64,000 nucleotides of DNA from Candidatus Poribacteria bacterium (GTDB taxonomy: Bacteria; Poribacteria; WGA-4E; WGA-3G): NCBI GenBank assembly GCA_963663765.2, contig CAXXUA010000004.1, positions 256,001 to 320,000 of the forward strand. The letters are read 5' to 3'. Under the pieces are notes generated by a model. The model was given only the letters and a program-made list of their open reading frames with translations. It was not told the origin of the DNA and did not search any database. Positions 4,115-25,714 of this stretch are shown piece by piece (the stretch's first letter is position 1; each line of letters opens with the position of its first letter). Made by a program: the position numbers and the translations under genes.

Positions 4115-4282
4115 TTATAGTAGATTTTAGAATTGCTTGAACATTTTCAACAATCTCGGTTCCGTTTTCCCTCGCTTGCTGGGAAGATAAGTGAGTTGCA
4201 TAACGTACAGGTGCACAAATCATTATAGGTTCTACTATATCTTATCAAATGCTGTGGCAATTGGCAAGAAAAAAGGGGTGTG

Positions 4283-4775
4283 GGGAGTGTAAAGTTTTTG
4301 TTACTGTGCGTAGGGGCGGGGTCTCTGTGCCCCATAAGCGTCAATTTAAGGATTTTGACCTCTTGTGGGAGGGGTTTGCAACCCCGAATTTATGCGCTTT
4401 TCCTCTCAAATCGGGGTTGAAAACCCCTCCCACAAGAGAAATGCTAACACTTTTTTCTTAAATTGACACCTATGGGGCGGGGTCTCTGTGCCCCGCCTTA
4501 CTGATTAAATGAGAAATTGCGAGGCATAGAGAACCATAGTTATCAATATAAGGAAATAATGTTATTATTAACCATACTCTTCAGTCCCGTAGGGACGATA
4601 TGTTTATAGAAAACGAATACCCTCTCCAATTCTTTAGTCCCGTAGGGACGATATGTTTATCCCTCTATATCGTTCCTACGCAACTCAAGAAAGGAGTGAT
4701 AACGTCTTTCTATAAAAATATCGTCCCTACGGGACTAAAGATAACAAAAGTTTGAACCTCTGTGAAAAACTTGTT
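4283..4775. mobile_element. Degenerate MITE of the GGG(A/T)GTGTAAAGTTTTTG family with internal REP hairpins
   Basis: Left end GGGAGTGTAAAGTTTTTG. Interior is homologous to 10470-10820 and 21285-22230 (GTCCCGTAGGGACGATATGTTTATAG hairpins). Right end is degraded. Confidence 0.6.
4333..4474. mobile_element. MITE with CATA(A/G)GCGTCAATTTAAG terminal inverted repeats and a 19-bp target duplication
   Basis: CATAAGCGTCAATTTAAG ... CTTAAATTGACACCTATG, flanked by the direct repeat GGGCGGGGTCTCTGTGCCC (4314-4332 and 4475-4493). Contains an inverted pair of GTGGGAGGGGTTT..AACCCC hairpins. Confidence 0.8.
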
Positions 4776-4899
4776 ATTCTGTCGCGAGGTATTTCGGGTG
4801 GAATTGACGATTATCTCTACCTTTCGTAACTAAAGGTGCATGTCATGTATGATTTTTAATTTTTCTTTTATTTTATGTTATAGACTATATGTTTCTCTG

Positions 4900-5616
4900 C
4901 TAACGCTGTTGGAGATGCTTAAGTTTATTCATCATCTGCATGCGTTGTGTTTGGATTTCGTTGGACCTTTTCCTAAGCCGTTCAAGTCCTTCTTCGTAAA
5001 CGCGGGGCTGCTCTGTTTTGGTTGCAGTACCTTTTCTATATTTATTTTCCGGTATCGTTTTATTCATTTTAGTGTTTACAACCTGAAGTGGAGGTGCGTA
5101 ACTGCGACTGAATTGCGTTCTTCTCGGATTGAGAAATTGAGAACCATTGAGACTTAGTTTCAACGGTTCTCCTTTTTTTGTAATTAGAGTGGTCCGCTTC
5201 TCTGTAATTTCTTGTACGGTCATATCACCAATCTGATCACTTAAGTTAACATCGTGAAATTGGTTAGACTCGCTTTCTTGAATATATGCTGTAGCACTGC
5301 TACCATCAGCAGCTATCGCGGTACCGAGAAGTGTATAAGCAGATTCGCGCTGTGGTGGTTCCCAGTTGAGCGGTCTGAAGATATTATTATCAATAATCGT
5401 TTGATAGAACGCATCAGGATCAACTTGTTGTATATCGGTCTGTTTTGAGAAACGCGCCCGTCTTTCATCCTGCTTTACAAGAGTTGCCTCAGCAGGAATA
5501 TTGGGAGAGGTTATAGATGTATCAGGACTCTGCGCATCAGGTTTCCAGAATAACCATACCCCTCCGAAAACACACACAATGGAAACAATAAAGGTGAATA
5601 TCAGGATGGACCTCAT
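4900..5616 (-). CDS. Membrane-anchored protein with a GspC/PilP-like HR domain
   Basis: N-terminal TM, 'NNIFRP', then 'YTLLGTAIAADGSSATAYIQ..QFHDVNLSDQIGDMTVQEITEKRTTL', which resembles the T2SS GspC HR beta-sandwich pattern (recognised by eye). Confidence 0.55.
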   Translation of the reverse strand: MRSILIFTFIVSIVCVFGGVWLFWKPDAQSPDTSITSPNIPAEATLVKQDERRARFSKQTDIQQVDPDAFYQTIIDNNIFRPLNWEPPQRESAYTLLGTAIAADGSSATAYIQESESNQFHDVNLSDQIGDMTVQEITEKRTTLITKKGEPLKLSLNGSQFLNPRRTQFSRSYAPPLQVVNTKMNKTIPENKYRKGTATKTEQPRVYEEGLERLRKRSNEIQTQRMQMMNKLKHLQQR

Positions 5617-6965
5617 TGTTCCGATGATTTATTATTCGGGGGTGTAGGACGTTCTGGTGGAAGCGGTGGCCGCTGTGGTACCATTTCTCTACCTATTTTG
5701 CGGATTGCTTCCAGTTCCTTGATTACCTCTTGTAAATCTTTTAGGTCGTTTGGTAATTCACCACCGTGGATTATTTGAAGCATTTCAAACCACTGCTGGA
5801 TGTTATGAGGACCAGGGGGTTCGAGTGGTAGAATTTCAGGAGAAAATTGCCTCTTTGGTTCGGAATCTCTGGGACTTTTTACAGTTTCTTGCGTGTTTAA
5901 CTGATCATCCGGATGTGTATGCGTGGGTGGATGTTTATCCTGCTGTTGAACTGGTGCGATCTTGTCCGGGACAACTTGCTGTGTTTGTTCAGGTATAGAG
6001 TTTATGAATGTTTCATGGTCTGCAATCATTTTTTTAACATTTGCTTGTGCTTCTTCTAAAGCTTTCATTCTCCTTTCATAAAATCGAGGAAGCGAATTAC
6101 TCGTAGGTAAGGGATTCCCTTTTTCGTCTGTATAAACAACTGTAATTCCTTTAGGAGCAATACCGTACATTGTCAACTTATTTTTCTGTTTTCGGGTTAG
6201 CTGCACACCAGTAAATTTGGAAATTCGTTTATCCTCTGAAATATAGACATTCACAGTTTTTTCTGAAAACGGGGTGAACACACCATCAAGGTTCGTGACA
6301 CCACCAGCAAAAGATGGATTCGCATCACGCGCTCGTTGGTTGTAGATTCTCGCAACAATAAAATACTTGATAATTACCTCCTCAAGTTCTTCCCATGTCG
6401 CATCTGAAGGTAATCTATAACCACTAAGCACATTAGCCCTACCTCCCAGTTTGTCAAAATCTCTTTTTGCCCACAGCATTCCATATCGTTTACTTACTGC
6501 CATTTTGTAGTGCCCAAAATCAAGGAAGGGGTTTCCCCAATTTCTCAAGTGTTCAAGCCATTCATTCTTTGGATTGAGACTTTCAACAGATGCCGCAAGT
6601 GCACCTCCTCCTTCGTAAAACTCATACTTTTCATCCCATTTTTCTATCATCTCTGAGACGGTGAAGGGTTGATAATTCTTTCTAATAGCTGCAAGGTCAA
6701 GGTCTTTCCACTGCCTAAGCATAGGATGCTTCTCCGATATGATATCGGAAGAGTGAGGTTTAAAAACACCTTCATCTGAAGTCAGATGATATGTGTGTGT
6801 ATGCTCAACTATGTTACCCTCAGGTCCTTCATGTTGATGTGGTTTAGATGTAGAAATCTTTAGATCTGACTTTGTTTCTTTCTTTTGTAGAACTACAAAA
6901 TAGATAGTAACTCCGATAACGATGACAAAGATTGATATCGAAATCAAGACGATCTGTTTTTTCAT
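5613..6965 (-). CDS. Hypothetical N-terminally anchored protein with His-rich and Pro-rich segments (paralog of 8502-9911)
   Basis: 450-aa ORF with a GGAGGG RBS, N-terminal TM and 'PHQHEGP..HTHTY'. Overlaps the next gene by ATGA. Confidence 0.8.
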   Translation of the reverse strand: MKKQIVLISISIFVIVIGVTIYFVVLQKKETKSDLKISTSKPHQHEGPEGNIVEHTHTYHLTSDEGVFKPHSSDIISEKHPMLRQWKDLDLAAIRKNYQPFTVSEMIEKWDEKYEFYEGGGALAASVESLNPKNEWLEHLRNWGNPFLDFGHYKMAVSKRYGMLWAKRDFDKLGGRANVLSGYRLPSDATWEELEEVIIKYFIVARIYNQRARDANPSFAGGVTNLDGVFTPFSEKTVNVYISEDKRISKFTGVQLTRKQKNKLTMYGIAPKGITVVYTDEKGNPLPTSNSLPRFYERRMKALEEAQANVKKMIADHETFINSIPEQTQQVVPDKIAPVQQQDKHPPTHTHPDDQLNTQETVKSPRDSEPKRQFSPEILPLEPPGPHNIQQWFEMLQIIHGGELPNDLKDLQEVIKELEAIRKIGREMVPQRPPLPPERPTPPNNKSSEQ

Positions 6966-7220
6966 AATTATTCCCCTCCCTGTTTTTCCTTATTTAGATT
7001 TTCTCCAACATTATACCTCGTGTTGGTATACATGGCACAAGCCATGTATACCAAAATATTGTAGAACTGGAATCAGAGATTGTCGCTATAGAAAAGGCAT
7101 GTACTGTAGAAGAGATCTCCGATTCCAGACTATTGGCACAACACACAATTTAATGGTGGACACAACAATCTATTATGGACATCAACGCTTATTTCTTCCA
7201 CGGATACGACGCATTAATTT

Positions 7221-8061
7221 TTAACGGCTACTATTGTACCCATGTAACCTTGGGATATTGCAGTTTTACTTTGTCGGACAGACAAATTCACTGCAAAGTC
7301 AGCTATAGGATTACCACTCAGATTAGCTTTAATTCCATAGGATTATGAATGAACAACGCCTACTCTTTCAACATCCGTACCTGTAGCATAGGTAACTGAA
7401 AGACTCACAGGAACTTCATGTATTCCTGCAGTAAATTCCCCTGATTTCTTATCAGTAATTTCTGTATCCGAAACCTCAATTCGAATATCTGCATAGTCGG
7501 TATCGTATGTCGTTTCAGGTAGATCAAGTTTTATACGTATAGGAGCAAGGGGAATCCTAACCCACACACCTTGCCTTTGAATAAACCTAAGTTGTATCTT
7601 TGCCTGTCCTGCCCAACCCGGTAAGTCTGAAGTAAATCTCATGTCATCAGTTAGCTCAGGAATTGCCGATCCCCTACAAGAACATTCAACTGCAGAAGCT
7701 TTAGCATCAACTCTCGCTCCAAAACCATATTGGTTTCATTTATTCCACCATCTCCGTTTATTAGTGGTGAGGCTTAATACCTAAGTGCCCACGAAGAACA
7801 AGACTTTCCATCGTTTTCTCTCACATTATCGGAATAATCACGATGCTCTTCTTTTCTTGGATCTTTAGCATCTGGATGATTCTCCCTATTATTACCAAGA
7901 GATTTTCCCGTAACATCATGGACCCAAAATTCAGGATTGTGGTCCATGATCGTGTGGTTTTCCCCAGCTTCATGCCCAAATCCACTTGGTGACTGAGCCA
8001 TAAAAACAGCAGACATCACAAAAACAAATAAAATTCCCAATTGAATCAGCTTGAATTTCAT
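7221..8061 (-). pseudogene. Disrupted secreted-protein gene
   Basis: GGAG RBS and a signal peptide (MKFKLIQLGILFVFVMSA...). TAA at 7774, then a frameshift into the 7343-7642 frame (QYGFGARVDAK...MRFTSD). A second in-frame TAA at 7343 is followed by protein-like SYGIKANLSGNP... Confidence 0.55.
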
Positions 8062-8381
8062 TCTTTCTCTCCTTGTGCCACTCAGTTGTGGTGTTCAGAT
8101 GTAGTTTACACATACATCCTATTGTCAATTATAGTTCTAACCCATCGTAGTTGTCAAACAAAAATTAACAATATGTGCTGCTACAAGCCGAACAACACAA
8201 CGGTCACATATTAGGTACACCCAATGCAACATAAAAACCCCCGCAACGAAACATTTCGTCTAATACGAAGGGCGCGAGCAAAGACAAAATAAGATTATCA
8301 ACGTTACTTTTTCGGAACGTGCTATATTATTAACGTATGTAGGGGTGGGACAATAATTTTGAGTAAGAATGCAAATATCCG

Positions 8382-8505
8382 CAGCAGGAATATTGGGAGA
8401 GGTTACAGATGTATCAGGACTCTGTGCATGAGGTTCCAGAATAACCGTACCCCTCCGAAAACACACAATGGAAACAATAAAAGTGAATATCAGGATGGAC
8501 CTCAT
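8382..8505 (-). pseudogene. Truncated, frameshifted copy of the 5' end of the GspC-like gene (4900-5616)
   Basis: Near-identical to 5490-5616, with a 2-bp (CA) and a 1-bp deletion. Homology stops abruptly at about 8382. Confidence 0.85.
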
Positions 8506-9911
8506 TGTTCCGATGATTTATTATTCGGGGGTGTAGGACGTTCTGGTGGAAGCGGTGGCCGCTGTGGTACCATTTCTCTACCTATTTTGCGGATTGCTTC
8601 CAGTTCTTTGATTACCTTTTGTAATGCCTTAAGGTCTTTTGGTAAATCTCCACCGTGTAGGAGTATCAATTCCTCAAACCATTTTTTGACTTGCTCTGGA
8701 CTGGGTGGTTCTGGTGGCTGTGGCGGATGTCTGTTTTTCCCAACTTGAGAAGGTATTTTCCGCTGTACATCCGATTTCTTTGCAGTATCTTTAGGTACCC
8801 CCACTTCCTCGTGTGGATGCGAGTGGTCTTGTTGAGTGTCTGCTACGTTGGGTCTTGTTACCTGAAAGGTTTCGTTTTTTGGTTGGTTAAAAAGCTCATC
8901 GTGAGCAGACACCAGCTTTTCAATTTGCTTTTCCGCTTGCTCCAATTCTGCCATACGCTTCTCAAAAAAACGTGGTTTTGAGACATCATCTGGTAAAGGA
9001 TTCCCATCCTTATCCCTATACACAATGTGCATTCCTTTCGGAATGATACCGAACATTATTAGGTCTTCTCTTTCTTTATCCGTGAGTTTCGCACCGATAA
9101 CTCTGACATAACCTGTGTTCGGATCAAGATGGACATGTGCAGAATCTTTGTGAAAAGCTGTGAAAACACCGGTTGCACTGACGCTACCTCCAATGTAATC
9201 AGGGTTTGTCCTGTATTCTTGTTCAAGAATATTTGCAGCAATAACTTGCGATTTTAGAAAGAGATCTTCATACTCTTCCCATGTTATAGCCGTATCTGCT
9301 GGAATTCCTAGCTCTGAAAGAACAGAAGTTCTTCCAGTGAAACCCGGGTCTTTAGGGTGTAACGGTTCCAAATTATCAAATTCCTTCTGTTGATTGTTTA
9401 AGCGACTTCGCTGCCTTAAAGCAGATCTATAGTTATAACCTGTAAGTAAAGGATATCCAAGGTCCAAGCAGCGTTGTAACCATTCATCGCACGGATAGAT
9501 ATCTTCAATCCACCCATGGTGTTTTTGCCAATGAATCCCTAACTCTTGATCCCACCACATTTCATTCATTTTTGCAACGGTGTAGGGCTGCAAATTTCTT
9601 TTTATTGTCGAGAGATCAAGTTTTTCCCATACTTTTTGGATTTGATGTTTCGTTTCTCCCTGAGTGGCAGCAGTGTCGTGTAGTATGATGGATGGTGACA
9701 TACTGAACTTATCTTGTTCTGGTTTATCATAAATATGGATATGAGAGACAACATCACCATCTGGAGAAAAATGTTGATGCGGTTTCGATTCTGGCAAACG
9801 AGTAAAATGATCATGAACACCAGAGTGCCGCGGTTTGGTGACAAAGAAAGTGAACCCGAAAATAATAACGACAAAAACGGATATGGTATAATAAACACTT
9901 TTTCTTTTCAT
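8502..9911 (-). CDS. Hypothetical N-terminally anchored protein (paralog of 5613-6965)
   Basis: Start at 9911 (AGGAGG RBS, MKRKSVYY). Shares 'KPHQH.P.G..V.H.H.Y', 'QP(Y/F)TV', '(F/Y)GI.PKG...VY.D..GNPLP' and an identical last ~37 aa. Confidence 0.85.
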   Translation of the reverse strand: MKRKSVYYTISVFVVIIFGFTFFVTKPRHSGVHDHFTRLPESKPHQHFSPDGDVVSHIHIYDKPEQDKFSMSPSIILHDTAATQGETKHQIQKVWEKLDLSTIKRNLQPYTVAKMNEMWWDQELGIHWQKHHGWIEDIYPCDEWLQRCLDLGYPLLTGYNYRSALRQRSRLNNQQKEFDNLEPLHPKDPGFTGRTSVLSELGIPADTAITWEEYEDLFLKSQVIAANILEQEYRTNPDYIGGSVSATGVFTAFHKDSAHVHLDPNTGYVRVIGAKLTDKEREDLIMFGIIPKGMHIVYRDKDGNPLPDDVSKPRFFEKRMAELEQAEKQIEKLVSAHDELFNQPKNETFQVTRPNVADTQQDHSHPHEEVGVPKDTAKKSDVQRKIPSQVGKNRHPPQPPEPPSPEQVKKWFEELILLHGGDLPKDLKALQKVIKELEAIRKIGREMVPQRPPLPPERPTPPNNKSSEQ

Positions 9912-10021
9912 TGAGGTTCCTCCTGATCCTGAAAGAGAAATAAGTATATACGGACCTATTTTATAAAACAACTATAATCTTAGTTAACGTGGGTTTGATA
10001 ATTATATAGGACAGACGCATT

Positions 10022-10050
10022 CCCCCTTGATAAGGGGGATTTAGGGGGTT
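10022..10050. repeat. REP-like hairpin CCCCCTTGATAAGGGGG-ATTTAGGGGG
   Basis: GC-rich palindrome in AT-rich intergenic DNA upstream of the 9911 gene. Confidence 0.5.
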
Positions 10051-10469
10051 AAAAACGCCAAAATAACGATTTTTTTCAGCAAATATCCGCTGTTCAGATG
10101 GTAAATATCTTAAACGTTTATTTAAGTAATAAAGCGATTTCACTTGGAAGCGTACCATTGTCAAACTCCTGATATTAAAGTTAAATCCCTAATATTAAAG
10201 AATAAATGCGCGGTAACATAGTTTTTCGTTCACACCACGCGACTCCTCAAATATTTTTACTCTAATAAAAGGCATGTCAAATTAACTCTGAAATATCGTG
10301 AAATATTGGAAGTGATACGATATTCTATTTACAATTATACACACAAAATTCTTTTATACAGAACTTGTAGCGAGTAAGAGCTAAGAATTCAAAGTAAATG
10401 GAGATCTGAAGCAGAAAGAAAAGGACAAAAATTACCTCTCTTTCTTTTCTTATTTCACCACAAACTTAT

Positions 10470-10820
10470 GGGTGTGTAAAGTTTTTGCACAAAGGTACAA
10501 ACTTTTGTTCTCTTTAGTCCCGTAGGGACGCAATGTTTATAGATAGGTGTAATCACCCTCTCTTGAGTTCCGTAGGAACGACATAGAAGAATAAACATAT
10601 CGTCCCTACGGGACTAAAGAACTGGTAAGGGCACTTGTTTTCTATAAACATATCGTCCCTACGGGACTGAAGAGTATGGTTGATATTAACAATATTTCCT
10701 TATATTGACACATATCGGTCTCTGTACCCGCAATCTCTCATTTAATCAGTTGCGGCGGGGCACAGAGATCCCGCTCTACAATGGAGAATGTGCAGTTTGT
10801 GCAAAAACTTTACACACCCC
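10470..10820. mobile_element. MITE with IS256-like ends, carrying REP hairpins
   Basis: Terminal inverted repeats GGGTGTGTAAAGTTTTTGCACAAA / TTTGTGCAAAAACTTTACACACCC. Flanks CAAACTTAT / CATACTTAT form a 9-bp duplication with 1 mismatch. Confidence 0.8.
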
Positions 10821-10893
10821 ATACTTATGTCTTACTCACTATGACTTCACACACAAAATTCATTTTTGTCAAATCTTTTTTTGTAAATTCTAA

Positions 10894-10956
10894 CAGGGCT
10901 TATGCATTTCCCTTATCAAAGAGGCTATAAGAGGAAAAGGAAATGCGTAAATCCTC
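10894..10956. mobile_element. Degenerate short element with CAGGACTTACGCA-like ends
   Basis: CAGGGCTTATGCATTTC ... GAAATGCGTAAATCCTC inverted ends; no clear target duplication. Confidence 0.45.
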
Positions 10957-10961
10957 ACAAT

Positions 10962-11672
10962 TTAGTAAATGGCCTTATCCCTTTTAAGTTTTCCCCAAGT
11001 CGTTGAAAGTTTTTCAGTTGGTTCAACAGCAAATGATTTTGCTGGTCCACCGTTTGGTATATTCTCACCAGCAACTTGGAAATTATCAAACCTTACTCGT
11101 GCATTTCTAACTACGAGTCCGACCTTTCCTCCATCTAATGGATTGCTATCTGATGCAGCGAAAATGAAATTATCAATCTGAAAAGAGAGAGAACCCTCAT
11201 CCATGACTGTTGCAGTCAGTGTATACCATGTATCTAATTCAGGAGTAAAAGTGCGTACAACATATCCATTTCCTGGTGCCCAACGTTCAATTGAAGCGGT
11301 GTTTCTTTCATAATCCAGCAAGAACATGTATCTACTGTCCTCGTCTTCCCTATCATGTAGGCTTAGTCCGACAATAGGTGTTCCAAAACCATCTTTAACC
11401 AACTTGACCCTGCACGACACGGTATAATGTTCCCAGGATAGTTCCCCAGTATTCCATATACTATAAAATGGATCTTCAAGTATTTCACCGACTGCCTCAC
11501 CATCATCAATCCACCATTTTTCAAATTGTCGATTTAGGTTATAGATTTCCCATTCCTTTATATTATCGTCTTCAAAATCATCTCTCCATGTTCCAGCGAA
11601 AGATGTGAAAATGGTATACAAAGTAAAGAATACTATGACGATATACTTAGATGTATTAAATGAATTTTTCAT
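10962..11672 (-). CDS. Secreted DUF1080/ConA-like beta-sandwich protein with a C-terminal 'AVEPTEKLSTTWGKLK' tail
   Basis: Signal peptide, 'WRDDFED', 'DTWYTLT' and 'GKVGL...RVRFDNFQV'. Start at the ATG at 11672 (GGGAG RBS). Confidence 0.75.
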   Translation of the reverse strand: MKNSFNTSKYIVIVFFTLYTIFTSFAGTWRDDFEDDNIKEWEIYNLNRQFEKWWIDDGEAVGEILEDPFYSIWNTGELSWEHYTVSCRVKLVKDGFGTPIVGLSLHDREDEDSRYMFLLDYERNTASIERWAPGNGYVVRTFTPELDTWYTLTATVMDEGSLSFQIDNFIFAASDSNPLDGGKVGLVVRNARVRFDNFQVAGENIPNGGPAKSFAVEPTEKLSTTWGKLKRDKAIY

Positions 11673-11682
11673 TTTTCTCCCC

Positions 11683-14600
11683 TTAAGCTTCTTTGACAAT
11701 ACATTGATTCACAGAGTCTGAATATATACAGAATCTGCAGTGGTTAATATTTTTTATATATTTACCTTGTTGTAATGAATTTATATTTTGAACACATGCA
11801 TTTGATATTTCAGGACAGTGTTTTTCATCAATGCACATTTTTTCACAATTGCCACTATTAGTAAAAAAATAATTAATATTTACTTTTGGAGTATTTGGAT
11901 AGGCTTGATGAATAAGTAAACCCATTAGCTCCATCTCATATTTGTAGTATTCACGTTGTTCTTCCTTAGATGTAACGAAATTAATTGCATGTAGTTGACC
12001 TGTATGATCAAAAAAGAGTCTATCAATCTTCCCTGAAAGAATGTGTCCATGTATTTCTGCAGTTATTCTATGATTGATAAAATGCTTGGATGCAGAAATA
12101 GCGTTCTGTGCTAAGTCTGTATCGGAAAAGTTGCTAATATGAAATCTTACAATATCAAATAGTTCGGACGAATTATCTTCTCCTTTAAATGCAGAAATAA
12201 ATTTTAGTGTTTGTGTGATCAAATTGTCTGGATTATGTATATGTGACGGATGTTGAATTCGGGAAAGAACACGGAGAATTGTTGATTCCAACTCATCTTC
12301 ATCTTTATCTGTTTTACTCTCACCTATAGGTTGAATTTGTAAGACATTTTCTAACTGATATCGTAGCGGACAACATCTATAGTTAGCAAGTTCATTGAAT
12401 GTATAGGAAGCAGGAATAATAGAATGTTGAATTTTTTTGAAAGGTTGTATTGAAAAATCTTCTGCATTTGGAACATCCATCTTATCATCTATTTCTATTT
12501 CATCAATCTGATTGATGATAGGTATCTGTAATTCATGAGAATGAGTTATAGTTTCTTCATTGAAATATTCAAGAGAATTAACTTGCTTTGAAAAAGCCTC
12601 ATCATTGTCACTGATTTCAAGTTTTTCAAATAACCACTTGAGCATGTTATCAAATTTACCCCAAGCATTTAGTGAACCAGATAGGATTAGACGGTCTTTT
12701 GCTCGGGTGGCTCCAACATAAAATAATCGTTTTTTCTCAGCTTCGTCTTTAGCTTTTGCACGATCTTTCATCAATGTTATAATCTCAGGAGAAGTTTTTG
12801 TGTAAGCATCCTCAGGATTGCGTGGACTAAAACCTATTCCGAGTAGATCGTCAATAAACGGTTCTTGTGTAAACCTTCCTGATCTATTGAGAGACGGGAG
12901 TATAACGATTGGGAATTGTTTTCCTTTTGCAGAATGGATAGTCATTATTTGAATAGCTTCACTACTCTCTTCAATGGGTGCTTGTCCTTCACGTGGTTCT
13001 TCAGTAATCAGTATGTCAAGAAATTCTATGAAATCTGATAATGTTGGCTTATTTTCATCTCCATCAAAATTTCTTGCAAGGTCTATTAGTTTCTGGTAGT
13101 TCGCCCATTTTTGCTGTCCTTGATGACCGATTTTTAATGTTCCTATCAACCCAGTTTGATTTACAATAGTCATGATAAACTGACTGATGGATGAACGCAT
13201 TGCAATCTGCCTGTGATTACTTATTTTTGCTATTGAGTTTTTGAGTCTTTCAGAAGCGTTTTTATAATTCATAACTTTATGCCAGAAATCATCACCAGTC
13301 TGTCGTGATATTTCAAAAAGTTCAGTATCAGAAATAGCGAAAGCTGGTCCACGTAGAATTCCAATGAGTGATGTATCATTTTTTGAAGGATTATTTAAGA
13401 AACTGATATAATTCCAGATGTCGTAGATTTCCTGTCTTTGATAAAACCCAACTCCTCCTGTCGTCAAATATGGTATATCTGCTGAGATAAGCGCTTGTTC
13501 CATTTCAGGTAGAACACTTCTACTACGAATAAGGATAGCAATATCACCATATTCAATAGGACATGGTATTTCATCCTCACCATCCGTTCTAATCCGAATA
13601 GTTTCTTTATTATCAATCATTCTTCTAATGTGTTGAGCTATGAGTACATACTCATTTCTTGTCTCATCTCTCTTGTCTCCTATCAGGATTTCAACTACAC
13701 CATTATTTTTACTATCACGTGCATTGGTAAGGGCATTAAATTCAACTTCATATTCAGATTCTGTTCCATCTCCCATAAGTCGATAAAAAAAGAAATTTGT
13801 AAATGCAAGCGGATTGCGTAACGAACGAAAGTTTTCGCTGAGAATTATATTTTCACCTTCATTCTCAATCTGTTGTTGCGTTCTGTCAAATACGCGTACA
13901 TCAGACCCTCGAAACCCGTAAATACTTTGCTTTGGATCTCCAACTATAAAAACATTGCTTGCTTGAAAGTCTTTTGTAAGAAGTTTCACTATCTCATGCT
14001 GCAACTCATTTGTATCCTGATATTCGTCAACCATGTAATACTTATATCTTTTGATTAATTCCTCCCGGATAACATGGTTATTTTTAAGCAAATCTCTTGT
14101 TTTCAGTTGTAAATCCTCAAAGTCAAGTTTACCTTGTGAATATTTATGGTTTTGATAATCGTTAAGAACTCTCTTATATAGAGAAAACAGATGTTTCGTA
14201 GTGTCAATTAGATAACGATCATCTGTATCGGTATTATCAGTTTCCAACGGTGTACTTGATTTAATATCCTTTGATGCAGTTACCAAGAATTTGATTTCTT
14301 TATCATAACCGGAAGTATTATTTCCTCTACCAATAAAATCATTTTTTGCAATACTTCCACCTTTTGTTGTAATTAATTCTGCAATTTTCCTTCGTAATTT
14401 GTGCGCTTCAATGGAGTCCTTTATTGTTGATAATTTAGTTGTTAAGATATTTACTTCAGATGCGTTCGGACCTTGTGCAATGTTTAATACGGGTGTCAAA
14501 CACTCTAACCATCTTCTCGTAATATGTTGATTCCAAAAGTCGTATATATCATTGCCAGAATTATTGTAGCGTTCTAATATAAGCGTTGATACCATATCCC

Positions 14601-15120
14601 GTTTTCCAACCATTGTTGAAAAAAATTCTGTAAGTTTCGTCCGATTGTTGTAACGTTGCAGTGAATGTTTTAGATCCGTGTAGTGCGAATCTTCAGGATT
14701 ATATGCAATTTCATCAAGTGTTTTCTTGATAGTGTGTCGTAACAGCAGTGTCTGATCAATACCTTGTAATATGCTAAAGTTGGCGGGGATTCCAGCTTGA
14801 AATGGAAATTCTCTTAGAATTCGCGAACAAAATGCATGAATAGTTGAGATAGGTGCAACATTCATCTCCTCAAGGAATGTTTCGCGCAAGGCACTATCTT
14901 CAATTTCCTTGATTTTATCTATGATACGTCCCTTCATTTCTGCAGCAGCCTTTTCGGTAAATGTAATAGCAACGATTTCACGCGGTCTAGTTGTACCTTG
15001 TTTCAGTATTTCGGAATAACGCGCAACTAATACAGTTGTCTTACCGGAGCCTGCGCCCGCTGTAACGCAAATATTTTCTTTTATGTTGATAGCATGTTGT
15101 TGGTTTTGTGTAAGTTTCAT
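11683..15120 (-). CDS. AddA/UvrD-family ATP-dependent helicase with a C-terminal PD-(D/E)xK-like domain
   Basis: 'AGAGSGKT', 'ITFTEKAAAEMKGRI', 'STIHAFC', 'VDEYQDTN', 'VGDPKQSIYGFRG', 'MTIHSAKG' and 'RLFYVGATRAKDRL'. Confidence 0.92.
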   Translation of the reverse strand: MKLTQNQQHAINIKENICVTAGAGSGKTTVLVARYSEILKQGTTRPREIVAITFTEKAAAEMKGRIIDKIKEIEDSALRETFLEEMNVAPISTIHAFCSRILREFPFQAGIPANFSILQGIDQTLLLRHTIKKTLDEIAYNPEDSHYTDLKHSLQRYNNRTKLTEFFSTMVGKRDMVSTLILERYNNSGNDIYDFWNQHITRRWLECLTPVLNIAQGPNASEVNILTTKLSTIKDSIEAHKLRRKIAELITTKGGSIAKNDFIGRGNNTSGYDKEIKFLVTASKDIKSSTPLETDNTDTDDRYLIDTTKHLFSLYKRVLNDYQNHKYSQGKLDFEDLQLKTRDLLKNNHVIREELIKRYKYYMVDEYQDTNELQHEIVKLLTKDFQASNVFIVGDPKQSIYGFRGSDVRVFDRTQQQIENEGENIILSENFRSLRNPLAFTNFFFYRLMGDGTESEYEVEFNALTNARDSKNNGVVEILIGDKRDETRNEYVLIAQHIRRMIDNKETIRIRTDGEDEIPCPIEYGDIAILIRSRSVLPEMEQALISADIPYLTTGGVGFYQRQEIYDIWNYISFLNNPSKNDTSLIGILRGPAFAISDTELFEISRQTGDDFWHKVMNYKNASERLKNSIAKISNHRQIAMRSSISQFIMTIVNQTGLIGTLKIGHQGQQKWANYQKLIDLARNFDGDENKPTLSDFIEFLDILITEEPREGQAPIEESSEAIQIMTIHSAKGKQFPIVILPSLNRSGRFTQEPFIDDLLGIGFSPRNPEDAYTKTSPEIITLMKDRAKAKDEAEKKRLFYVGATRAKDRLILSGSLNAWGKFDNMLKWLFEKLEISDNDEAFSKQVNSLEYFNEETITHSHELQIPIINQIDEIEIDDKMDVPNAEDFSIQPFKKIQHSIIPASYTFNELANYRCCPLRYQLENVLQIQPIGESKTDKDEDELESTILRVLSRIQHPSHIHNPDNLITQTLKFISAFKGEDNSSELFDIVRFHISNFSDTDLAQNAISASKHFINHRITAEIHGHILSGKIDRLFFDHTGQLHAINFVTSKEEQREYYKYEMELMGLLIHQAYPNTPKVNINYFFTNSGNCEKMCIDEKHCPEISNACVQNINSLQQGKYIKNINHCRFCIYSDSVNQCIVKEA

Positions 15121-15153
15121 TTTATTTTGTCTTATGAAATAATTAGTCAATGG

Positions 15154-16227
15154 CTATTTGTCTATGGGTAATGGGACGATAGCTTTTGGAGATATAGAGA
15201 CATTAATTGTATCACCAGGTTGCTTTATTTCAGTTCCAGGATCATAAATGAGAGCTTTCAGTTTCAAGTCATCACCAATTTTCAATTCGTATTCTTCAAC
15301 TCTACCCAAATATGTTACATTTCCAACCTTTGCGGAAAATTGATTAGTTGACGTTTTTCCATTCAGGTGGATCATCTCAGGACGAATTGAACACTTTACA
15401 TTCTGTCCCTGCGTGAAGTCATGGTGAACACTTTCTGTATGAAGCACACCAACGGAGGTTTGGATTGCTGCTTTACCTTCTGTGATTTCCTGTATATTAC
15501 CATTTATGAAGTTTGTTTCACCTACAAAACTGGCAACGAATGGGTCAACAGGATTTTGATAGATTTCACGCGGCGTACCAACTTGTACAAAGACACCATC
15601 TTTCATTATAGCCATTCTGTCAGCCATGGAAATAGCCTCTATTTGGTCGTGAGTGACATAAATTGTGGTGATGTTTGTCCGTTTTTGTATTTCTTTGATT
15701 TCGTTTCGTAGACTTTGACGAAGTGCAGCATCCAAATTACTCAGCGGTTCGTCAAGTAACAACACACTCGGTTCAATGACTAACGCCCGTGCTAACGCTA
15801 TACGCTGTTGTTGTCCTCCTGAGAGTGTATTAACTGGACGGTCTCTGTATTCTTCCATTTGCACCATTTCAAGAACAGTATCAATTTTTTCTTTTCGTGT
15901 AGTTTTGTTTAGTTTACGTAGAACAAGACCGTAATCAATGTTTTCTGCAACGGTCATGTGTGGCCAGAGTGCATAGTTTTGGAATACCATGCCAGTATTG
16001 CGTTGATGAGGGGGAACATTATTCACTACTTCGTTATCAAAATGTAGTAGTCCAATATCTGGGTGATAGAATCCTGCAATCACTCGAAGTAAAGTAGATT
16101 TACCACAACCAGAGGGACCGAGTAGGAAAAACAGTTCACCACGTTCAATCGTCAAGGAAACATTATTGACTGCAATCGTGGTATCAAATGCTTTAGTAAT
16201 TTGATTTAATTCTACACTAACTGACAT
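15154..16227 (-). CDS. ABC transporter ATP-binding protein (PotA/FbpC type, TOBE domain)
   Basis: GPSGCGKST, 'VFQNYALWPH', LSGGQQQR, 'LLDEPLSNLD' and 'YVTHDQ'. Confidence 0.95.
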   Translation of the reverse strand: MSVSVELNQITKAFDTTIAVNNVSLTIERGELFFLLGPSGCGKSTLLRVIAGFYHPDIGLLHFDNEVVNNVPPHQRNTGMVFQNYALWPHMTVAENIDYGLVLRKLNKTTRKEKIDTVLEMVQMEEYRDRPVNTLSGGQQQRIALARALVIEPSVLLLDEPLSNLDAALRQSLRNEIKEIQKRTNITTIYVTHDQIEAISMADRMAIMKDGVFVQVGTPREIYQNPVDPFVASFVGETNFINGNIQEITEGKAAIQTSVGVLHTESVHHDFTQGQNVKCSIRPEMIHLNGKTSTNQFSAKVGNVTYLGRVEEYELKIGDDLKLKALIYDPGTEIKQPGDTINVSISPKAIVPLPIDK

Positions 16228-16263
16228 AAATTATATACCTAACCAGATACTTGATTAATTTGT

Positions 16264-16458
16264 CAGGACTTACGCAGTTTTCTTAATTTGATCAAGAAAT
16301 TTGATGAAAATGATGTAATTATGAGCATTTTTATGTGTTTCCAGCGCGCTTACAAAGCACCAAATCAAGAAATCAACGGTATGAATGCCATTAAGGCATT
16401 CCCCGGGTATGAATGCCATTTAGGCATTCCCCGCCTACCGTTCGGTGCGTAAGTCCTG
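16264..16458. mobile_element. MITE, CAGGACTTACGCA family
   Basis: 13-bp terminal inverted repeats; 5-bp duplication TTTGT on both sides; contains GCGCGCTTACAAAGCAC plus two GGTATGAATGCC..GGCATTCCCC hairpins. Confidence 0.88.
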
Positions 16459-16467
16459 TTTGTAAAT

Positions 16468-17280
16468 CTATTCTTCAATATCTTTAACACATCGAAACCC
16501 AATGGTGCTACCAGATGATAGATGATACCATCTATCCGTTACTCGCAAGTCGTCAATGCTTCCACTCCAACCACCACCACGTAATACTCGGAAGTTTTCA
16601 TTCTGCGGAACAGAGGAACTTCCATAACGCGGGTTGTTGATTGGTGACACACTATAGAAATCCGAATTGTAGACATCATAGCACCATTCCCAAACATTTC
16701 CAACCATATCGTATATGCCGTATCCGTTTGGTGAAAAGCTACCAACAGGTGCTGTCCATTTCCACGTGTCTTTTCCTTCAATGCTGGCATAGTTTGCATC
16801 ATTTCTGGTAATTATATCCCCTGAAGGATATGTTTTTCCACATAGATTTCCGCGGGTAGCATATTCCCATTCCGCTTCTGTTGGTAACCGTTTGTTTGCC
16901 CAGTTTGCATACGCTACAGCATCATTCCAAGACACGTTCACTACAGGATGTTCAGGTTTATTGAATCTTGTGTCATGCCAAAGCGGTGGTAAAGCGTATC
17001 CTGTTGCTGATACAAACTTTTGGTATTGTGAATTCGTTACCTCATATATATCAATGTAAAACGCATCAATAAAGACTTCATGAACTGGATATTCGTCAAA
17101 ATCACCATTGTTACTATCAGAGTCACCCATCAGAAATGTGCCTGCGGGAATAAATCGCATTTTTGCATGATCTATATTGGATACAATTGTTTCCTCAAAT
17201 TCCTTTGTTGTTATTACCTCTTGAGAAGAATCCATACACGCCCATAAAAAGATTATTGAAATTAGAAAAACAACTTTCAT
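16468..17280 (-). CDS. FGE-sulfatase (SUMF1) domain lipoprotein
   Basis: Lipobox-like 'LWAC', 'IPAGTFLMG', 'PVVNVSWNDA', 'RLPTEAEWEYA', 'DMVGNVWEW', 'RGG' and 'GFRC'. Lacks the catalytic Cys pair of true FGE. Confidence 0.9.
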   Translation of the reverse strand: MKVVFLISIIFLWACMDSSQEVITTKEFEETIVSNIDHAKMRFIPAGTFLMGDSDSNNGDFDEYPVHEVFIDAFYIDIYEVTNSQYQKFVSATGYALPPLWHDTRFNKPEHPVVNVSWNDAVAYANWANKRLPTEAEWEYATRGNLCGKTYPSGDIITRNDANYASIEGKDTWKWTAPVGSFSPNGYGIYDMVGNVWEWCYDVYNSDFYSVSPINNPRYGSSSVPQNENFRVLRGGGWSGSIDDLRVTDRWYHLSSGSTIGFRCVKDIEE

Positions 17281-18728
17281 GCTGATATATTTTTACTATT
17301 TTCTATCGTAGAAACTACCTCTGTTGCAGCCTGAACCAACAGTTTTTGCTCATTCTCAAACAAAGTACGTACATCAAACCATAGTTGATCGTTTTCAATT
17401 CTTCCAATGATTGGGTTGCTGCAATCTCTAAAATACTCCGACAATTTTTCCACAGAAACCTTTTCAGGAGTAAGTACAACTGCAATACTTGGTATTGTTT
17501 CAGTAGGTAATGAACCGCTTCCAATCTCTGACTGTGTTTCAGTAATTGCAATTGAGATATTCTTATCAAAAATTGCTCGTAACTTGTCAGATAGCTGTTC
17601 TGCTGTTGTCTTTAAATCTTCAATTGAACGTGTGTATCTTTTTAGCATTGGTAATTTATCTGAAATATTATCCTGAATTAGATATGTCTGTAAGGTAGCT
17701 GAAAGTGCTGCGATTGTTAGTTTGTCAACACGAAGTGCACGCATCAAAGGATTCTTACGGATCTGATGTATCCATTCTGCTTTACCTACAATAATTCCAG
17801 CTTGTGGACCGCCAAGAAGTTTATCTCCACTGAAAGTAACAATGTCTACACCCGTTTCAATTCGATCAGCGACAACAGGTTCTTTAGGCAGTCCAAATTG
17901 GGAAAGGTCAATCAATGCACCGCTACCTAAATCTTCCATCGTTGGTATACCGCGTTCATTACCGAGTTCGGTCAATTCTTGCATTTCTGGTGTTGAGGTA
18001 AAGCCTACAACTTTGTAATTACTTGGATGTACCTTTAGTAGGAGTGCAGTATCTTCATTAATTGCATTTGCATAATCACGTAAATGAGTTCGATTTGTGG
18101 TTCCTACTTCTTTTAGAATCGCACCGCTTGCTTCCATCACATCAGGAATACGAAATGAACCACCGATTTCAATAAGTTCACCACGTGAAACGATTACCTC
18201 TTTCCCTTGTGCAACAGTTTGCAGTGCAATCAAAACAGCAGCGGCATTGTTATTTACGACTGTTGCTGCTTCACAACCTGTCAGTTGTTGTAGCATCGGT
18301 TCTGTAATACGGTCACGATGGCCACGTTTACCTGTGTCAAGATCATATTCAAGGTTGACATAATTTTGGGCTGCTTCTTGTAGGCTTTTACAAACTGAAG
18401 GAGACAGTAATGAACGACCTAAATTGGTGTGTGTTATTGTGCCTGTTGCATTAATAACAGTACGTAGGGGTGGTCTCGTTTTTTCTTTAATCCATTTGTG
18501 GACTAATGTTGGGTATTCTGACGGTTCTGGTAGGATAACATTTTCATCGCCCTGCAGAATTTGTTCGCGAAGCTCTGAGACCACTGATCTGAGTGCTGCG
18601 GTAACATACCTCCGAGCATAAATTGTATGCAGTGCTTGCATCTCTGGTAGTGATAGCAGTTTTTCGATCGACGGTAGTTGCCGCAGCAAGTTTTCAGTGG
18701 TGGATTGTTTTTCAGTGTTTGTTGACAA
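17277..18728 (-). CDS. selA: L-seryl-tRNA(Sec) selenium transferase
   Basis: 'VINATGTITHTNLGRS', 'NLEYDLDTGKRGHR', 'SRGELIEIGGSFRIPDVM', 'FSGDKLLGGPQAG' and 'RALRVDK'. Confidence 0.97.
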   Translation of the reverse strand: MSTNTEKQSTTENLLRQLPSIEKLLSLPEMQALHTIYARRYVTAALRSVVSELREQILQGDENVILPEPSEYPTLVHKWIKEKTRPPLRTVINATGTITHTNLGRSLLSPSVCKSLQEAAQNYVNLEYDLDTGKRGHRDRITEPMLQQLTGCEAATVVNNNAAAVLIALQTVAQGKEVIVSRGELIEIGGSFRIPDVMEASGAILKEVGTTNRTHLRDYANAINEDTALLLKVHPSNYKVVGFTSTPEMQELTELGNERGIPTMEDLGSGALIDLSQFGLPKEPVVADRIETGVDIVTFSGDKLLGGPQAGIIVGKAEWIHQIRKNPLMRALRVDKLTIAALSATLQTYLIQDNISDKLPMLKRYTRSIEDLKTTAEQLSDKLRAIFDKNISIAITETQSEIGSGSLPTETIPSIAVVLTPEKVSVEKLSEYFRDCSNPIIGRIENDQLWFDVRTLFENEQKLLVQAATEVVSTIENSKNISA

Positions 18729-18853
18729 AATCTTATACCGAAATAGATTATTGATTGGGTTACCATGTTATCTGTTTTTGCATTTTAGTCAAGAAAAAAA
18801 TAGGCAGATACCCAAAAAGGATACCTACCTGTGATAAAATACGTCGAGGGGTG

Positions 18854-20194
18854 TTATTCTTCAACGTCCGGTTCCAACGCCTTCAGCACCGACTCTGCAA
18901 ATGACTTCTCATAGTTGGCAGTGACTAACTCTCTTGCAAGCTGCTGTCGCTGCTCTGGCGTTGCACCCTTTACCCCCGATACCACTTCTCGAACCTTAGA
19001 TACAACCGACTTTTGCAGCTGCGATGTCCGAAGTTTCAAGGCATCCCGATCTTCTTGTGTCGGAAAAAACTCATCAAACTCCGCAGTGGTCATATATTGA
19101 GAGACCACCACATCAAAGTATTTCTTATCTAAATCTACACGAAATGGACGAAATGAAGCATACACAGCAGACACAGATTTAACAGGATCAAGGGTGGTAA
19201 CAGTAGACTGTTGTGAAACTGCTACGTCTTCGGGTGCGTTTGACGAAGTATCTATATCCCTCGAAGGCGAAACAAGGGATTCTGATGGAACTGCAGGCTC
19301 AGCAAGTCCTGATTCTGCAGGCACAAAATTCTTTAACTCCGCAAGAAGTTTATCCGCTTCTGCCATCGCTTGCTGATACGGTTTCAGCCACTCTGGCGGG
19401 TTCTTCTCCCATTCCTCCATCTTTCGCTGAACGGTTTCCTGTATCTCAACTTCCAGGTTCTGTTCCCGGTTCTGTTCCCATTTGAGGTCTTCAATACGTT
19501 CATGGTAACCTGCCAAAAAGTCGCGCAAAGTATCTGCATACTCGGAATCTCCTTTCGCTTCAGCTTTTTGAATTCGTGCTTCCATTTCAGGAATCCCCGA
19601 CTCCCACTTTTGAATTTCCTTTGCGTAATACGCATCGGGGTCAATCCGTTTGAGCTCCTCATCTCTTTGCCCCTTTGCTGCAACTTTTTCTTCTATTTCA
19701 CGCATCGTTGACACATCTTCTTGTATAACATTAACCAGTTTAAGAGCTTTTTGTTCTTTCTCTTCTGGCGAGTAAAGATTATCTAAGATCCGATAATATT
19801 GAAGGAGAGACGCAAATATACCCTCAACACGAGCGTTTTCAGGATAAAAACCCATCAGGATTCTGACTATCTCCTTGTCACTTTTTTCTTTAATCGGAGC
19901 CAGTTTAGCGAGCATGTGTGCCATTTCCGACCTGTCTGATGCAGTAATAGGTTCTGAACGACCGATTGACAAGTCTACGTCTATATTCTCATGTGTTTCA
20001 AGCAAGAGTTTTGCTTCCATGATCGCTGCTTCTGTTGGCATGTTTTCCTCCTGTTCTGGATTCGCTGTGCTTGGCGTGGAGACATCGGGATCTGGATTGT
20101 GTTGATACAATAACCAACCAAACACACCCAGCATCAATAACAGAATAACAATGGCACCTCTGATAATTTTCTGTCTTATATTCTCATTCCTCAT
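18854..20194 (-). CDS. Hypothetical N-terminally anchored, helical/coiled-coil protein
   Basis: 446-aa ORF with a GAGGAGG RBS, single N-terminal TM, E/K-rich helices and a Pro/Ser linker. Confidence 0.8.
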   Translation of the reverse strand: MRNENIRQKIIRGAIVILLLMLGVFGWLLYQHNPDPDVSTPSTANPEQEENMPTEAAIMEAKLLLETHENIDVDLSIGRSEPITASDRSEMAHMLAKLAPIKEKSDKEIVRILMGFYPENARVEGIFASLLQYYRILDNLYSPEEKEQKALKLVNVIQEDVSTMREIEEKVAAKGQRDEELKRIDPDAYYAKEIQKWESGIPEMEARIQKAEAKGDSEYADTLRDFLAGYHERIEDLKWEQNREQNLEVEIQETVQRKMEEWEKNPPEWLKPYQQAMAEADKLLAELKNFVPAESGLAEPAVPSESLVSPSRDIDTSSNAPEDVAVSQQSTVTTLDPVKSVSAVYASFRPFRVDLDKKYFDVVVSQYMTTAEFDEFFPTQEDRDALKLRTSQLQKSVVSKVREVVSGVKGATPEQRQQLARELVTANYEKSFAESVLKALEPDVEE

Positions 20195-20252
20195 GGTTTA
20201 ATACCTCCTCAATTGCTCTTTTCAGTTCAGGGCTATTGTCAAGAATTCGTTG

Positions 20253-21095
20253 CTATGCTTCAGGTACCAGTTCACGAATCTCCTCAATTTTACTCTTAGC
20301 AGCAGTGATTTTATCCTCGGTTACCAGTTGTCGTGCTTCTTCTAAAGCACGTTCTATCCGCTTTGCATCGAGTTCTAAGATTTTGGCTTTATGATCTTTA
20401 GTGAGTTTTCTGGCTATAGCTAACTGCTCATTCGCCCACCTGTTCCAATTATCACGATTAATTTGGGCAAAGCTAACGGTTCTCATTGCATCGCCTTCCT
20501 CAGACTTTCTAACTTTCACCGCTTCTTCTGCAGTGGTAATCGCATTTAAAGCTTCCGCAGTTTTGCTTTCCCACTGTTGCCATTCGCTATGCAGACGTGA
20601 ACCTTCACTGCAAAGAAAATCCTCATCACACCAATCACAATAATGCACATGATTGTTATACGCATTATTTTTCAATTGCGTATCCTCTTTTGTAGTCTGA
20701 TGCTTCGACTTTGCTATGCTTACTGCTGTTTTCGCATCAGTGACGGCTTGTGTTGCAGCAGTCAACGCATCCTCTGCAGTCTCAAGCGCGGTTTCAGCTG
20801 TTATTAATTTAGTATTCCATTCCCAAAAGATATCCCAAGCACTCCTTCTTTGATTATACAGTTTGCTAACTTCTTTTTCAAGAGCCTTGATTTGTTCATC
20901 AAGGTCTTTTATCATATCATCAATCAGGTAGTAGAGTGTTATTGCCGTTGACGCTACACCAACAATAGTCCAAAGCAGCTTACCAGTTATAGCTACGGTT
21001 GCAATAATGGGAACGGGAGCTGGAGCGTACAGGGGAAAAATGATACATAATAAACTGACATTTATCACAAGGTTGTTTATACTGCTAACAATCAA
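20253..21095 (-). CDS. Hypothetical coiled-coil protein with a hydrophobic N-terminus and an HxxxCxxCx5C motif
   Basis: 280-aa ORF, start uncertain. Heptad-rich Ala/Glu/Lys helices flank 'HVHYCDWCDEDFLCSEG'. Confidence 0.7.
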   Translation of the reverse strand: MIVSSINNLVINVSLLCIIFPLYAPAPVPIIATVAITGKLLWTIVGVASTAITLYYLIDDMIKDLDEQIKALEKEVSKLYNQRRSAWDIFWEWNTKLITAETALETAEDALTAATQAVTDAKTAVSIAKSKHQTTKEDTQLKNNAYNNHVHYCDWCDEDFLCSEGSRLHSEWQQWESKTAEALNAITTAEEAVKVRKSEEGDAMRTVSFAQINRDNWNRWANEQLAIARKLTKDHKAKILELDAKRIERALEEARQLVTEDKITAAKSKIEEIRELVPEA

Positions 21096-21332
21096 TATAT
21101 AGAAGGGATAGTGTTATGAAAATGCGATTTGATTTTATAGATTTATCTTGACTTTTAGCACATGAGATATCATCCTAATTTAAAAAACTTATGACATATT
21201 CATAAAATAGGTGGCTATCTCATGCAAAATCATATTATCACTTCTGTAAAGTTTTTTCAAACACTTCTCTACTCTAATTTTTATGGGTGTGTAAAGTTTT
21301 TGCACCATAGGCGTCAATTTAAGGCAGCTAAT

Positions 21333-21496
21333 CCTCGCACACATCGTAGGGGCGAGGTCTCCTCGCACACATCGTAGGGGCGAGGTCTCCTCGCACACAT
21401 CGTAGGGGCGAGGTCTCCCTCGCACACATCGTAGGGGCGAGGTCTCCTCGCCCGTGTAAACGAACTTCCAATCGGGCGGGGAAACCCCGCCCCTAC
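21333..21496. repeat. 4 x 28-bp tandem REP (CCTCGCACACATCGTAGGGGCGAGGTCT) plus an inverted partner REP
   Basis: Units start at 21333, 21361, 21389 and 21418. Each contains GTAG followed by the GCGAGG-TCT-CCTCGC palindrome. The inverted GGGCGGGGAAACCCCGCCCCTAC lies at 21474-21496. Confidence 0.9.
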
Positions 21497-21571
21497 AATA
21501 AAGGTGCCATCTGAAGGAATTAGAACATCCAAGGTTTCACTTACACAAGAATAGAGAACTTCTTACTTAAA

Positions 21572-21693
21572 CAGGACTTACGCAGTTTTCACGATCCAAT
21601 CAAGAATTAAGACGAAAACGATGTAATTTACAGCATTTTTTAGGGTTCCGGCGCGCTTACAAAGCACGCCTACCGTTGGGTGCGTAAGTCCTG
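21572..21693. mobile_element. MITE, CAGGACTTACGCA family, inserted into the right end of the 21306-21710 element
   Basis: Perfect 13-bp terminal inverted repeats; 5-bp duplication TTAAA. Confidence 0.9.
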
Positions 21694-21813
21694 TTAAATT
21701 GACGCCTATGGGTGTGTAAAGTTTTTGCACAAACATCCCACTCTCCATTGTAGGTCAGGTCTCTGTGCACCGCGGCAACTGATTAAATGAGAGATTGCGG
21801 ACACAGAGTCCTA

Positions 21814-21950
21814 ATGAGTTTTGACGTTCAAGTTGTGTATTCGTAGGGGTGTGGTTTCCACACATGAATCTACGCAAACTCAAAAACCAAACGGGTTGGG
21901 GAACCCAACCCCTACGAATTCAACTACCAATTTTGATTGTCAAACTTCAT
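21814..21950. mobile_element. Small MITE flanked by TA
   Basis: TA-ATGAGTTTTGAC ... GTCAAACTTCAT-TA. Contains the inverted REP pair CGTAGGGGTGTGG.. / ..CCAACCCCTACG. Absent from the homologous position in 10470-10820. Confidence 0.7.
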
Positions 21951-25502: not shown

Positions 25503-25503
25503 A

Positions 25504-25668: not shown

Positions 25669-25714
25669 AATAGAGTAAGGTAGTAATTAGTCTGTTTGTA
25701 AAAAAGGAAACATC

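Follow-up and report, generated by a model that had tools for sequence, protein, structure and literature searches.

Two non-autonomous elements with 19- and 20-bp target duplications in a Candidatus Poribacteria genome and their probable IS4-family partner transposase

The two elements and their family in the source genome

This study concerns two short mobile elements in a 64,000-bp stretch of DNA from Candidatus Poribacteria bacterium (G000:C4:256001-320000, where G000 is the source genome; hereafter the window). Element 1 is 142 bp long and element 2 is 405 bp long. Both insertions are intergenic, and the neighbouring genes are one coding for an FG-GAP/ASPIC-UnbV protein (2429-4114, minus strand) and lepA (22276-24081, plus strand). 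We consider it likely that the two elements are non-autonomous derivatives (miniature inverted-repeat transposable elements, MITEs) of an insertion sequence (IS) of the IS4 family with IS231-type ends, and that the length of the repeats flanking them is set by the transposase protein. The features, several of which involve repetitive extragenic palindromic (REP) sequences, are as follows.

4314-4332, plus strand: target duplication, left copy, 19 bp (core of a GTAG-type REP-like palindrome)
4333-4474, minus strand: element 1, 142-bp MITE, the family's common form
4333-4350, plus strand: 18-bp terminal inverted repeat of element 1 with the IS231-type signature CAT-7-AA-2-TAA (signature as in Table 1 of PMC2266710)
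4360-4438: long internal inverted repeat (hairpin) of element 1, without Rfam match
4457-4474, minus strand: 18-bp terminal inverted repeat of element 1
4475-4493, plus strand: target duplication, right copy, 19 bp
21286-21305, plus strand: target duplication, left copy, 20 bp, the terminal repeat of an ISKra4-type MITE
21306-21710: element 2, 405 bp, non-autonomous
21306-21323, plus strand: 18-bp terminal inverted repeat of element 2
21333-21453: about four head-to-tail copies of a REP-containing unit inside element 2
21571-21694: nested repeat of another family, bounded by 14-bp inverted repeats, abutting the right end of element 2
21693-21710, minus strand: 18-bp terminal inverted repeat of element 2
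21711-21730, plus strand: target duplication, right copy, 20 bp
21711-22230: the ISKra4-type MITE whose terminal repeat was the target; its other end is at 22213-22226

An earlier note on this DNA had described two elements with common ends and different interiors, flanked by exact long direct repeats and lying inside other repeats, and all of this held. With up to 3 mismatches allowed, the end motif matched four times in the window (0.12 expected), each time at an end of element 1 or 2. The flanks 4314-4332 and 4475-4493 are identical over 19 bp, and 21286-21305 and 21711-21730 over 20 bp. The target of element 1 is a GTAG-type REP-like palindrome, and that of element 2 is the ISKra4-type terminal repeat, a site that also occurs without insertion elsewhere in G000 (3 exact copies and 21 within 2 mismatches). 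The end of element 1 at 4333 resembles the right end of the full-length IS, and the end at 4474 resembles its left end. Element 2 has no second full-length copy in G000; it shares only its 18-bp ends with the family, and its interior consists of captured REP units and the nested foreign repeat. Because only those ends belong to the family, 18 bp per end appear to suffice for movement. A search of window positions 4000-22500 against Rfam gave no match.

Genome-wide, G000 contains 457 ends and 168 end pairs. Pairs of 138-146 bp with a long internal hairpin are the common form (121/168), and 28 pairs of other lengths (100-1807 bp) likewise carry 17-21-bp duplications. Exact flanking repeats of 19 bp (37 pairs), 20 bp (30), 21 bp (1) and 50 bp (1) were detected, with none in 99 pairs. 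A mismatch-tolerant score was passed by 116 of the 168 pairs, at 18 bp (1), 19 bp (60), 20 bp (51), 21 bp (2) and 50 bp (2), and no pair scored at 4-17 or 22-49 bp; among shuffled flank pairs, a 17-21-bp repeat appeared in 62 of 3000. Ends were set at CAT...ATG; the terminal C/G also fits the target, so that each repeat can be read 1-2 bp longer, and IS186A measured with the same convention gave 10 bp. The earlier note had proposed tabulating all copies, and in this table, with 111 of 168 pairs at 19 or 20 bp, neither constant flanks nor a short class appeared. Because the flanks vary between copies, and because the second site occurs uninserted elsewhere, the repeats are target duplications and not parts of the elements. 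As in other MITEs, the copies are short, gene-less and numerous, with target duplications and with ends common to an autonomous element. All 24 of the other genomes drawn from the genus had the end motif, whereas of 16 genomes from elsewhere in the order only 3 had it, as single stray matches; named records with the motif point to Poribacteria.

In 19 places in G000, two to four elements are joined into tandem chains by single target copies. Neighbours within a chain may be identical, unrelated or anything in between, and re-insertion and local doubling are therefore both probable. Four-element chains with single 19-20-bp target copies between the members lie at G000:C5:906401-907025, C5:2968-3770 and C6:20521-21192, and they resemble small arrays of clustered regularly interspaced short palindromic repeats (CRISPR) with the roles of repeat and spacer reversed. 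Insertion into an asymmetric REP was biased in orientation (14/17). Non-autonomous members of 1.0-1.15 kb were also seen (G000:C2:50379-51526, C4:650664-651783 and C6:305681-306703); their interiors are long tandem runs of REP units that are open in several frames, and gene mis-calls are likely there. A more distant variant of the end motif, at window positions 4535-4552 and 10699-10716, closes REP-carrying shells and occurs, unpaired, in at least 13 places in the genome.

Other repeat families lie beside and inside the two elements. The ISKra4-type family has 217 ends in G000, and its full-length member encodes an ISKra4 transposase. Its ends occur in the window at 4287-4300, 10474-10815 and 21289-22226; the shells carry REP clusters, and the full-length form is about 1.45 kb (e.g., L460). 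At 21100-21281 lies the 5' portion of a further DDE insertion sequence (98.9% identical to G000:C4:44033-44214), which stops exactly where the ISKra4-type MITE starts. The third family, bounded by 14-bp inverted repeats, has 581 ends in G000 and occurs in the window at 16263-16459, 21571-21694, 25503-25669 and 27191-27314, among other places.

The partner transposase and its relatives

Full-length elements with the same ends were found in related genomes. They are 1451 and 1470 bp long, contain one open reading frame (ORF) of 438 or 442 residues and are flanked by 19- and 20-bp duplications. The ORFs score above cut-off against DDE_Tnp_1 and the IS4 profile NF033592, and their predicted structure has the RNase H-type fold of the Tn5 transposase, with only 8% identity to Tn5/IS50. 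A matching gene is present in 27 of 39 other genomes of the genus, one with 43 matches, and in 38 of 121 in a sample of the phylum. The catalytic residues D119, D191 and E324 are conserved in 40 of 40 long-duplication rows, and their spacings of 72 and 133 fit the IS4 pattern D(60-110)D(100-150)E. The R, E and K of the YREK motif are likewise present in 40/40 long rows, and the Y in 4/40 (35/126 rows of alignment A1), including L343, L353 and L161. The full motif Y-(2)-R-(3)-E-(6)-K, a listed feature of IS4, is mostly incomplete here.

The earlier note had left the family of the autonomous ORF among IS4-like, IS1182, IS1634, Cas1-solo or other. Our results support IS4 with IS231-type ends, and not IS1182, IS1634 or Cas1-solo. 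The IS1634 family, characterised by a large transposase and by duplications that are 5-6 bp and A/T-rich or else long and variable, was ruled out by the profile NF033559 (scores of 44 and 36 against a cut-off of 100) and by the G/C-edged, fixed-length targets. A casposon or Cas1-solo origin was ruled out because the partner ORF is a DDE_Tnp_1 protein with a Tn5 fold.

In G000 itself, these ends flank none of the 60 DDE_Tnp_1 places examined (of 76; near-identical copies omitted). One 1807-bp copy (G000:C4:1180654-1182460), which carries a transposase gene and a 19-bp duplication, was considered as an autonomous member and rejected: a MITE has here been interrupted by an unrelated IS50-like element. 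The IS50-like element has its own ends, 8-9 bp duplications and three more copies, and matches NF033590. Its near-identical copies lie at G000:C4:1180690-1182347, C5:1130419-1132078, C6:355575-357233 and C6:430082-431741; the C4 copy is frameshifted near its start, and three of the four are in or beside the internal hairpin sequence of the present MITE family.

The elements, of about 1.45 kb, resemble the IS231 subgroup in their ends (CAT-7-AA-2-TAA), their single ORF and a D-D-E spacing within the family range. For this subgroup, Table 1 of De Palmenaer, Siguier and Mahillon 2008 (PMC2266710) gives ends CAT-------AA--TAA, sizes of 1450-5400 bp and duplications of 10-12 bp, with 7-13 bp for the IS4 family. 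The present ends carry this signature, with variation after the second TA in some lineages. However, the duplications here are 17-21 bp instead of the 10-12 bp given there, and the YREK tyrosine is mostly lost. The hosts here are Poribacteria and Chloroflexota, neither of which is in the IS231-subgroup list of supplement 1 of PMC2266710. IS4 transposases of Bacillus and Clostridium were among the best plasmid matches (23-26% identity); our trees are without Bacillus proteins (both ends not found). Since duplication length and, mostly, the tyrosine depart from the IS4 listing, we class the group as a derived clade of IS231-type elements that would work like IS231 or IS186, and not as a plain member. 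IS186/IS421 of Escherichia coli has very similar 18-bp ends, a G-run...C-run target, the same profile family and 27% identity over 230 residues, but differs in its 10-bp duplication (measured here) and its shorter protein (370 aa).

Several other systems make comparable duplications. Duplications of 8-514 bp are given for the DDE-type IS1549/IS1634 (PMC2266710) and variable ones of 19-26 bp for IS1630 (PMC2853133). These also exceed 15 bp but vary by copy, whereas here each enzyme is constant to about 1 bp. Casposase duplications are 14-15 bp and CRISPR repeats 25-50 bp (PMC6977970). Casposases and CRISPR Cas1-Cas2 are similar to the present elements in their long fixed duplications and in the repeated use of a site, which yields repeat-insert-repeat runs like the chains of G000; in contrast, their fold is unrelated, the enzyme here is RNase H-type and Tn5-like, and what is inserted is a copy of the element itself. 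Tn5/IS50 is different not only in identity but also in the 8-9 bp duplications and CW ends listed for the IS50 subgroup (PMC2266710, Table 1). A fixed 17-21-bp duplication in IS4 did not turn up in our literature search, which covered neither ISfinder nor the majority of subscription papers; a database entry is possible.

What sets the duplication length

The long duplications are found in two phyla. In Poribacteria, 93 full-length loci of 1442-1510 bp were collected (two repeat others), and the duplication in 76 of them was 17 bp (6), 18 bp (7), 19 bp (33) or 20 bp (30). In Chloroflexota, where elements are 1410-1553 bp, 17 of 401 genomes matched; measurable sites were 19, 20 or 21 bp, and one element had 11 bp. 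The best plasmid matches were from Chlorohelix (34% identity, 20 bp) and Herpetosiphon (35%, 19 bp). The enzyme on the Herpetosiphon plasmid pHAU01 is ABX07799.1. Over 100 distinct sites, duplications were 10-11 bp (11 sites) or 17-21 bp (89 sites), and none was 12-16 bp. A tree was built from 26 representatives of measured length, leaving out IS186 and unmeasured rows. Its 20 long-duplication rows form one clade (support 100/99) with the 11-bp element L361 as sister, and the 10-11-bp rows branch further out; earlier trees agree. All 89 sites of the long clade are 17-21 bp. Because deep-branching long rows read 20-21 bp, the jump probably took the length from about 11 bp to about 21 bp. In the wider library there were 872 representatives at E <=1e-30. 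By tree position alone, most of the 150 best belong to the long clade (support 0.78 in a quick tree), as do 134 of 137 placed representatives of full length. Wider sampling gave matches in 1/251 genomes in the phylum of G136 and in 2/66 and 1/2 in two Chloroflexota subgroups. Among distant elements, 50 of 61 had no scorable duplication, probably because assemblies join the flanks of different copies.

The ends do not set this length. The first 18 bases of L349 (21 bp) and L361 (11 bp) are identical, and cyanobacterial MITEs with the G000 end have 9-bp duplications in 14 of 17 pairs, 11 of them exact; near-identical ends thus give 9, 11 or 21 bp across lineages. These cyanobacterial MITEs (115-205 bp, same 18-bp end, many in REP-like palindromes) were observed in L044, L048, L063, L067, L072, L080, L081, L090, L100, L104 and L116. 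A partner for them was found in 0 of 5 genomes. Distant matches occurred in 6 of 301 cyanobacterial genomes, and the one measurable had a 10-bp duplication and other ends.

Nor does the host set the length, since two lengths coexist both in G005 and in G007, each following the end subtype (few sites; most G007 ends are unpaired). This also bears on a stagger of about 10 bp lengthened by host repair through strand displacement or resection, as perhaps in IS1549 and IS1634, for which the long duplications on record (8-514 bp) are given without a mechanism in PMC2266710. Against repair of this kind, which we regard as very improbable, stand the tight, element-specific lengths, the agreement of the trait with the protein tree in both phyla, and the 8-9 bp made by the IS50-like element in G000.

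The target consensus is GTNG|GG...CC|CNAC, with cuts at the bars, and the site read spans 27-28 bp. REP-targeting IS4 elements are known, for example ISRm22. The targets are mostly palindromic because the preferred site is a dyad, and with 6-nt flanks 84/89 targets of full-length elements and 41/48 non-tandem targets in G000 are foldable. An enzyme of ordinary geometry might insert at an extruded cruciform and cut both strands close to the junction, which would duplicate the hairpin in full, and the element of G003, with 19 or 20 bp according to REP size, is in line with this. However, targets with no predicted hairpin even with flanks (5/89 and 7/48), in two identical copies, still have 19-20 bp, as do the 32 of 73 for which folding of the duplicated word by itself predicts no hairpin. 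A single REP class is represented at sizes 17-20. Size 17 gave 17 bp with three related enzymes (6/6), while the G005 enzyme cuts the same hairpin off-centre and makes 18 bp (5/5); single cases of 19 bp on a size-20 REP and 20 bp on a size-18 REP were also found. Of this class, the G000 elements occupy 22 places of size 20 but only 1 of size 17-18, with 12 intact short sites present, and dyads spaced at 13 bp (97), 7 bp (65) or 24 bp (38) in G000 are all unoccupied. Insertion at a cruciform is accordingly considered unlikely. The wide-stagger transposase proposed in the earlier note is supported by the IS4-type elements of related genomes, which have the same ends and make 17-21 bp. Its suggestion that target structure might guide the stagger is not supported as the cause of length: REPs of one size give 17 or 18 bp according to the enzyme, and hairpin-less targets give 19-20 bp.

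We quite confidently prefer, as the best reading, a ruler within the protein that was lengthened once by about one helical turn, with the G-run...C-run site reading of the family kept. A DDE transposase of 438-445 residues with a Tn5 fold would have moved both elements in trans via their 18-bp ends. The element would be cut out, its 3' ends joined to the two target strands, and the gaps repaired by the host, leaving the duplication; this cut-and-paste chemistry and a dimer would be expected from the family, the Tn5-like fold and the precedent of IS231A (PMC2266710). Relatives read the same kind of site at 10-11 bp, and in one lineage the cut spacing probably jumped once to about 20-21 bp and later drifted to 17-20 bp in Poribacteria. 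The protein would then determine the duplication length, with a tolerance of about 1 bp that lets the cuts fall at the G/C edges, and REP palindromes and the terminal repeats of other elements would be chosen because they carry that dyad at that spacing. One added turn would preserve the rotational relation between the two scissile bonds: in B-DNA geometry, about 10 bp more keeps the helix relation, while the straight-line separation grows from about 35 angstroms to about 70. The extra turn might be spanned by a wider dimer or by a sharply looped target. Staggers of 10 bp attack opposite sides of the helix (PMC2266710), and for Mu and Mos1 the target has been documented to bend sharply, by 140-147 degrees (PMC6900584).

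Alternatively, a higher-order transpososome (a tetramer, or an assembly with IHF/HU) could place the catalytic units two turns apart with the core dimer unchanged. A whole-turn jump without intermediates would fit such a change of assembly, as would the 27-28-bp span of the site, but the elements have no extra domain or partner gene, their proteins are no longer than those of short-duplication relatives and each element has a single ORF. We think this improbable.

Loss of the YREK tyrosine was rejected as the cause of length, since this residue is missing from the 11-bp sister as well and is retained by several long members. The sister and the long group differ most at residues 336-375 (23% vs 49%). 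Position 345 is E in 7/7 short rows and Y or W in 14/20 long rows, and W363 is present in 18/20 long rows and 0/7 short rows. The segment after the catalytic helix is thus a candidate for the change, as a lead only, the rows being related and distant.

Several observations weigh against the preferred reading. G000 has no matching transposase gene (the queries IS186 and P0001 gave no significant match), the link between element and enzyme rests on shared ends and not on a caught event, and the structural model is a monomer without DNA. Fifty-two of the 168 pairs lack a scorable duplication. Four other runs hold the region, three of them reaching into the left end of element 1, and among the joints listed none skips either element cleanly in a search of contigs, which drop rare variants. 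The short sister L361 is one element, with one direct 11-bp site and two matched across contigs, and L183, near the split, has no measurable flanks. Identity across the split is only 28-36%, and residue differences may be unrelated to the ruler. Furthermore, 17-18 bp is a non-whole number of turns from 10-11 bp, the many foldable targets make a helping role of DNA structure possible, and the G003 enzyme follows REP size, which we read as the 1 bp of play needed to reach the G/C edges.

Implications for transposase families

Duplication length helps to define IS families and reflects the spacing at which the two active sites meet the target. Here, the fixed length, its one origin, a sister that shares the ends but makes 11 bp, and a graded 17-21 series make the determinant of the stagger testable by domain swaps and structure, and a long-duplication member is available on a plasmid of the cultured Herpetosiphon aurantiacus DSM 785. 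An enzyme reading a 27-28-bp dyad may also integrate more selectively than Tn5. Programs for IS detection that seek only short duplications would miss these elements or set their bounds wrongly.

A bolder version, which we offer tentatively and with considerable doubt, is that a single change in an IS4-type DDE enzyme, which widened the spacing of its two cuts by one whole turn, underlies a large undescribed clade in at least two phyla, that its 17-21-bp rulers are tunable and matched to REP size classes, and that the ruler lies in a small swappable segment after the catalytic helix. If true, grafting the segment onto the 11-bp sister would switch its duplication to about 21 bp. This would also be the longest fixed stagger that we could find for an RNase H-type transposase, and it would offer a plain route from transposition to CRISPR-like repeat-insert-repeat arrays.

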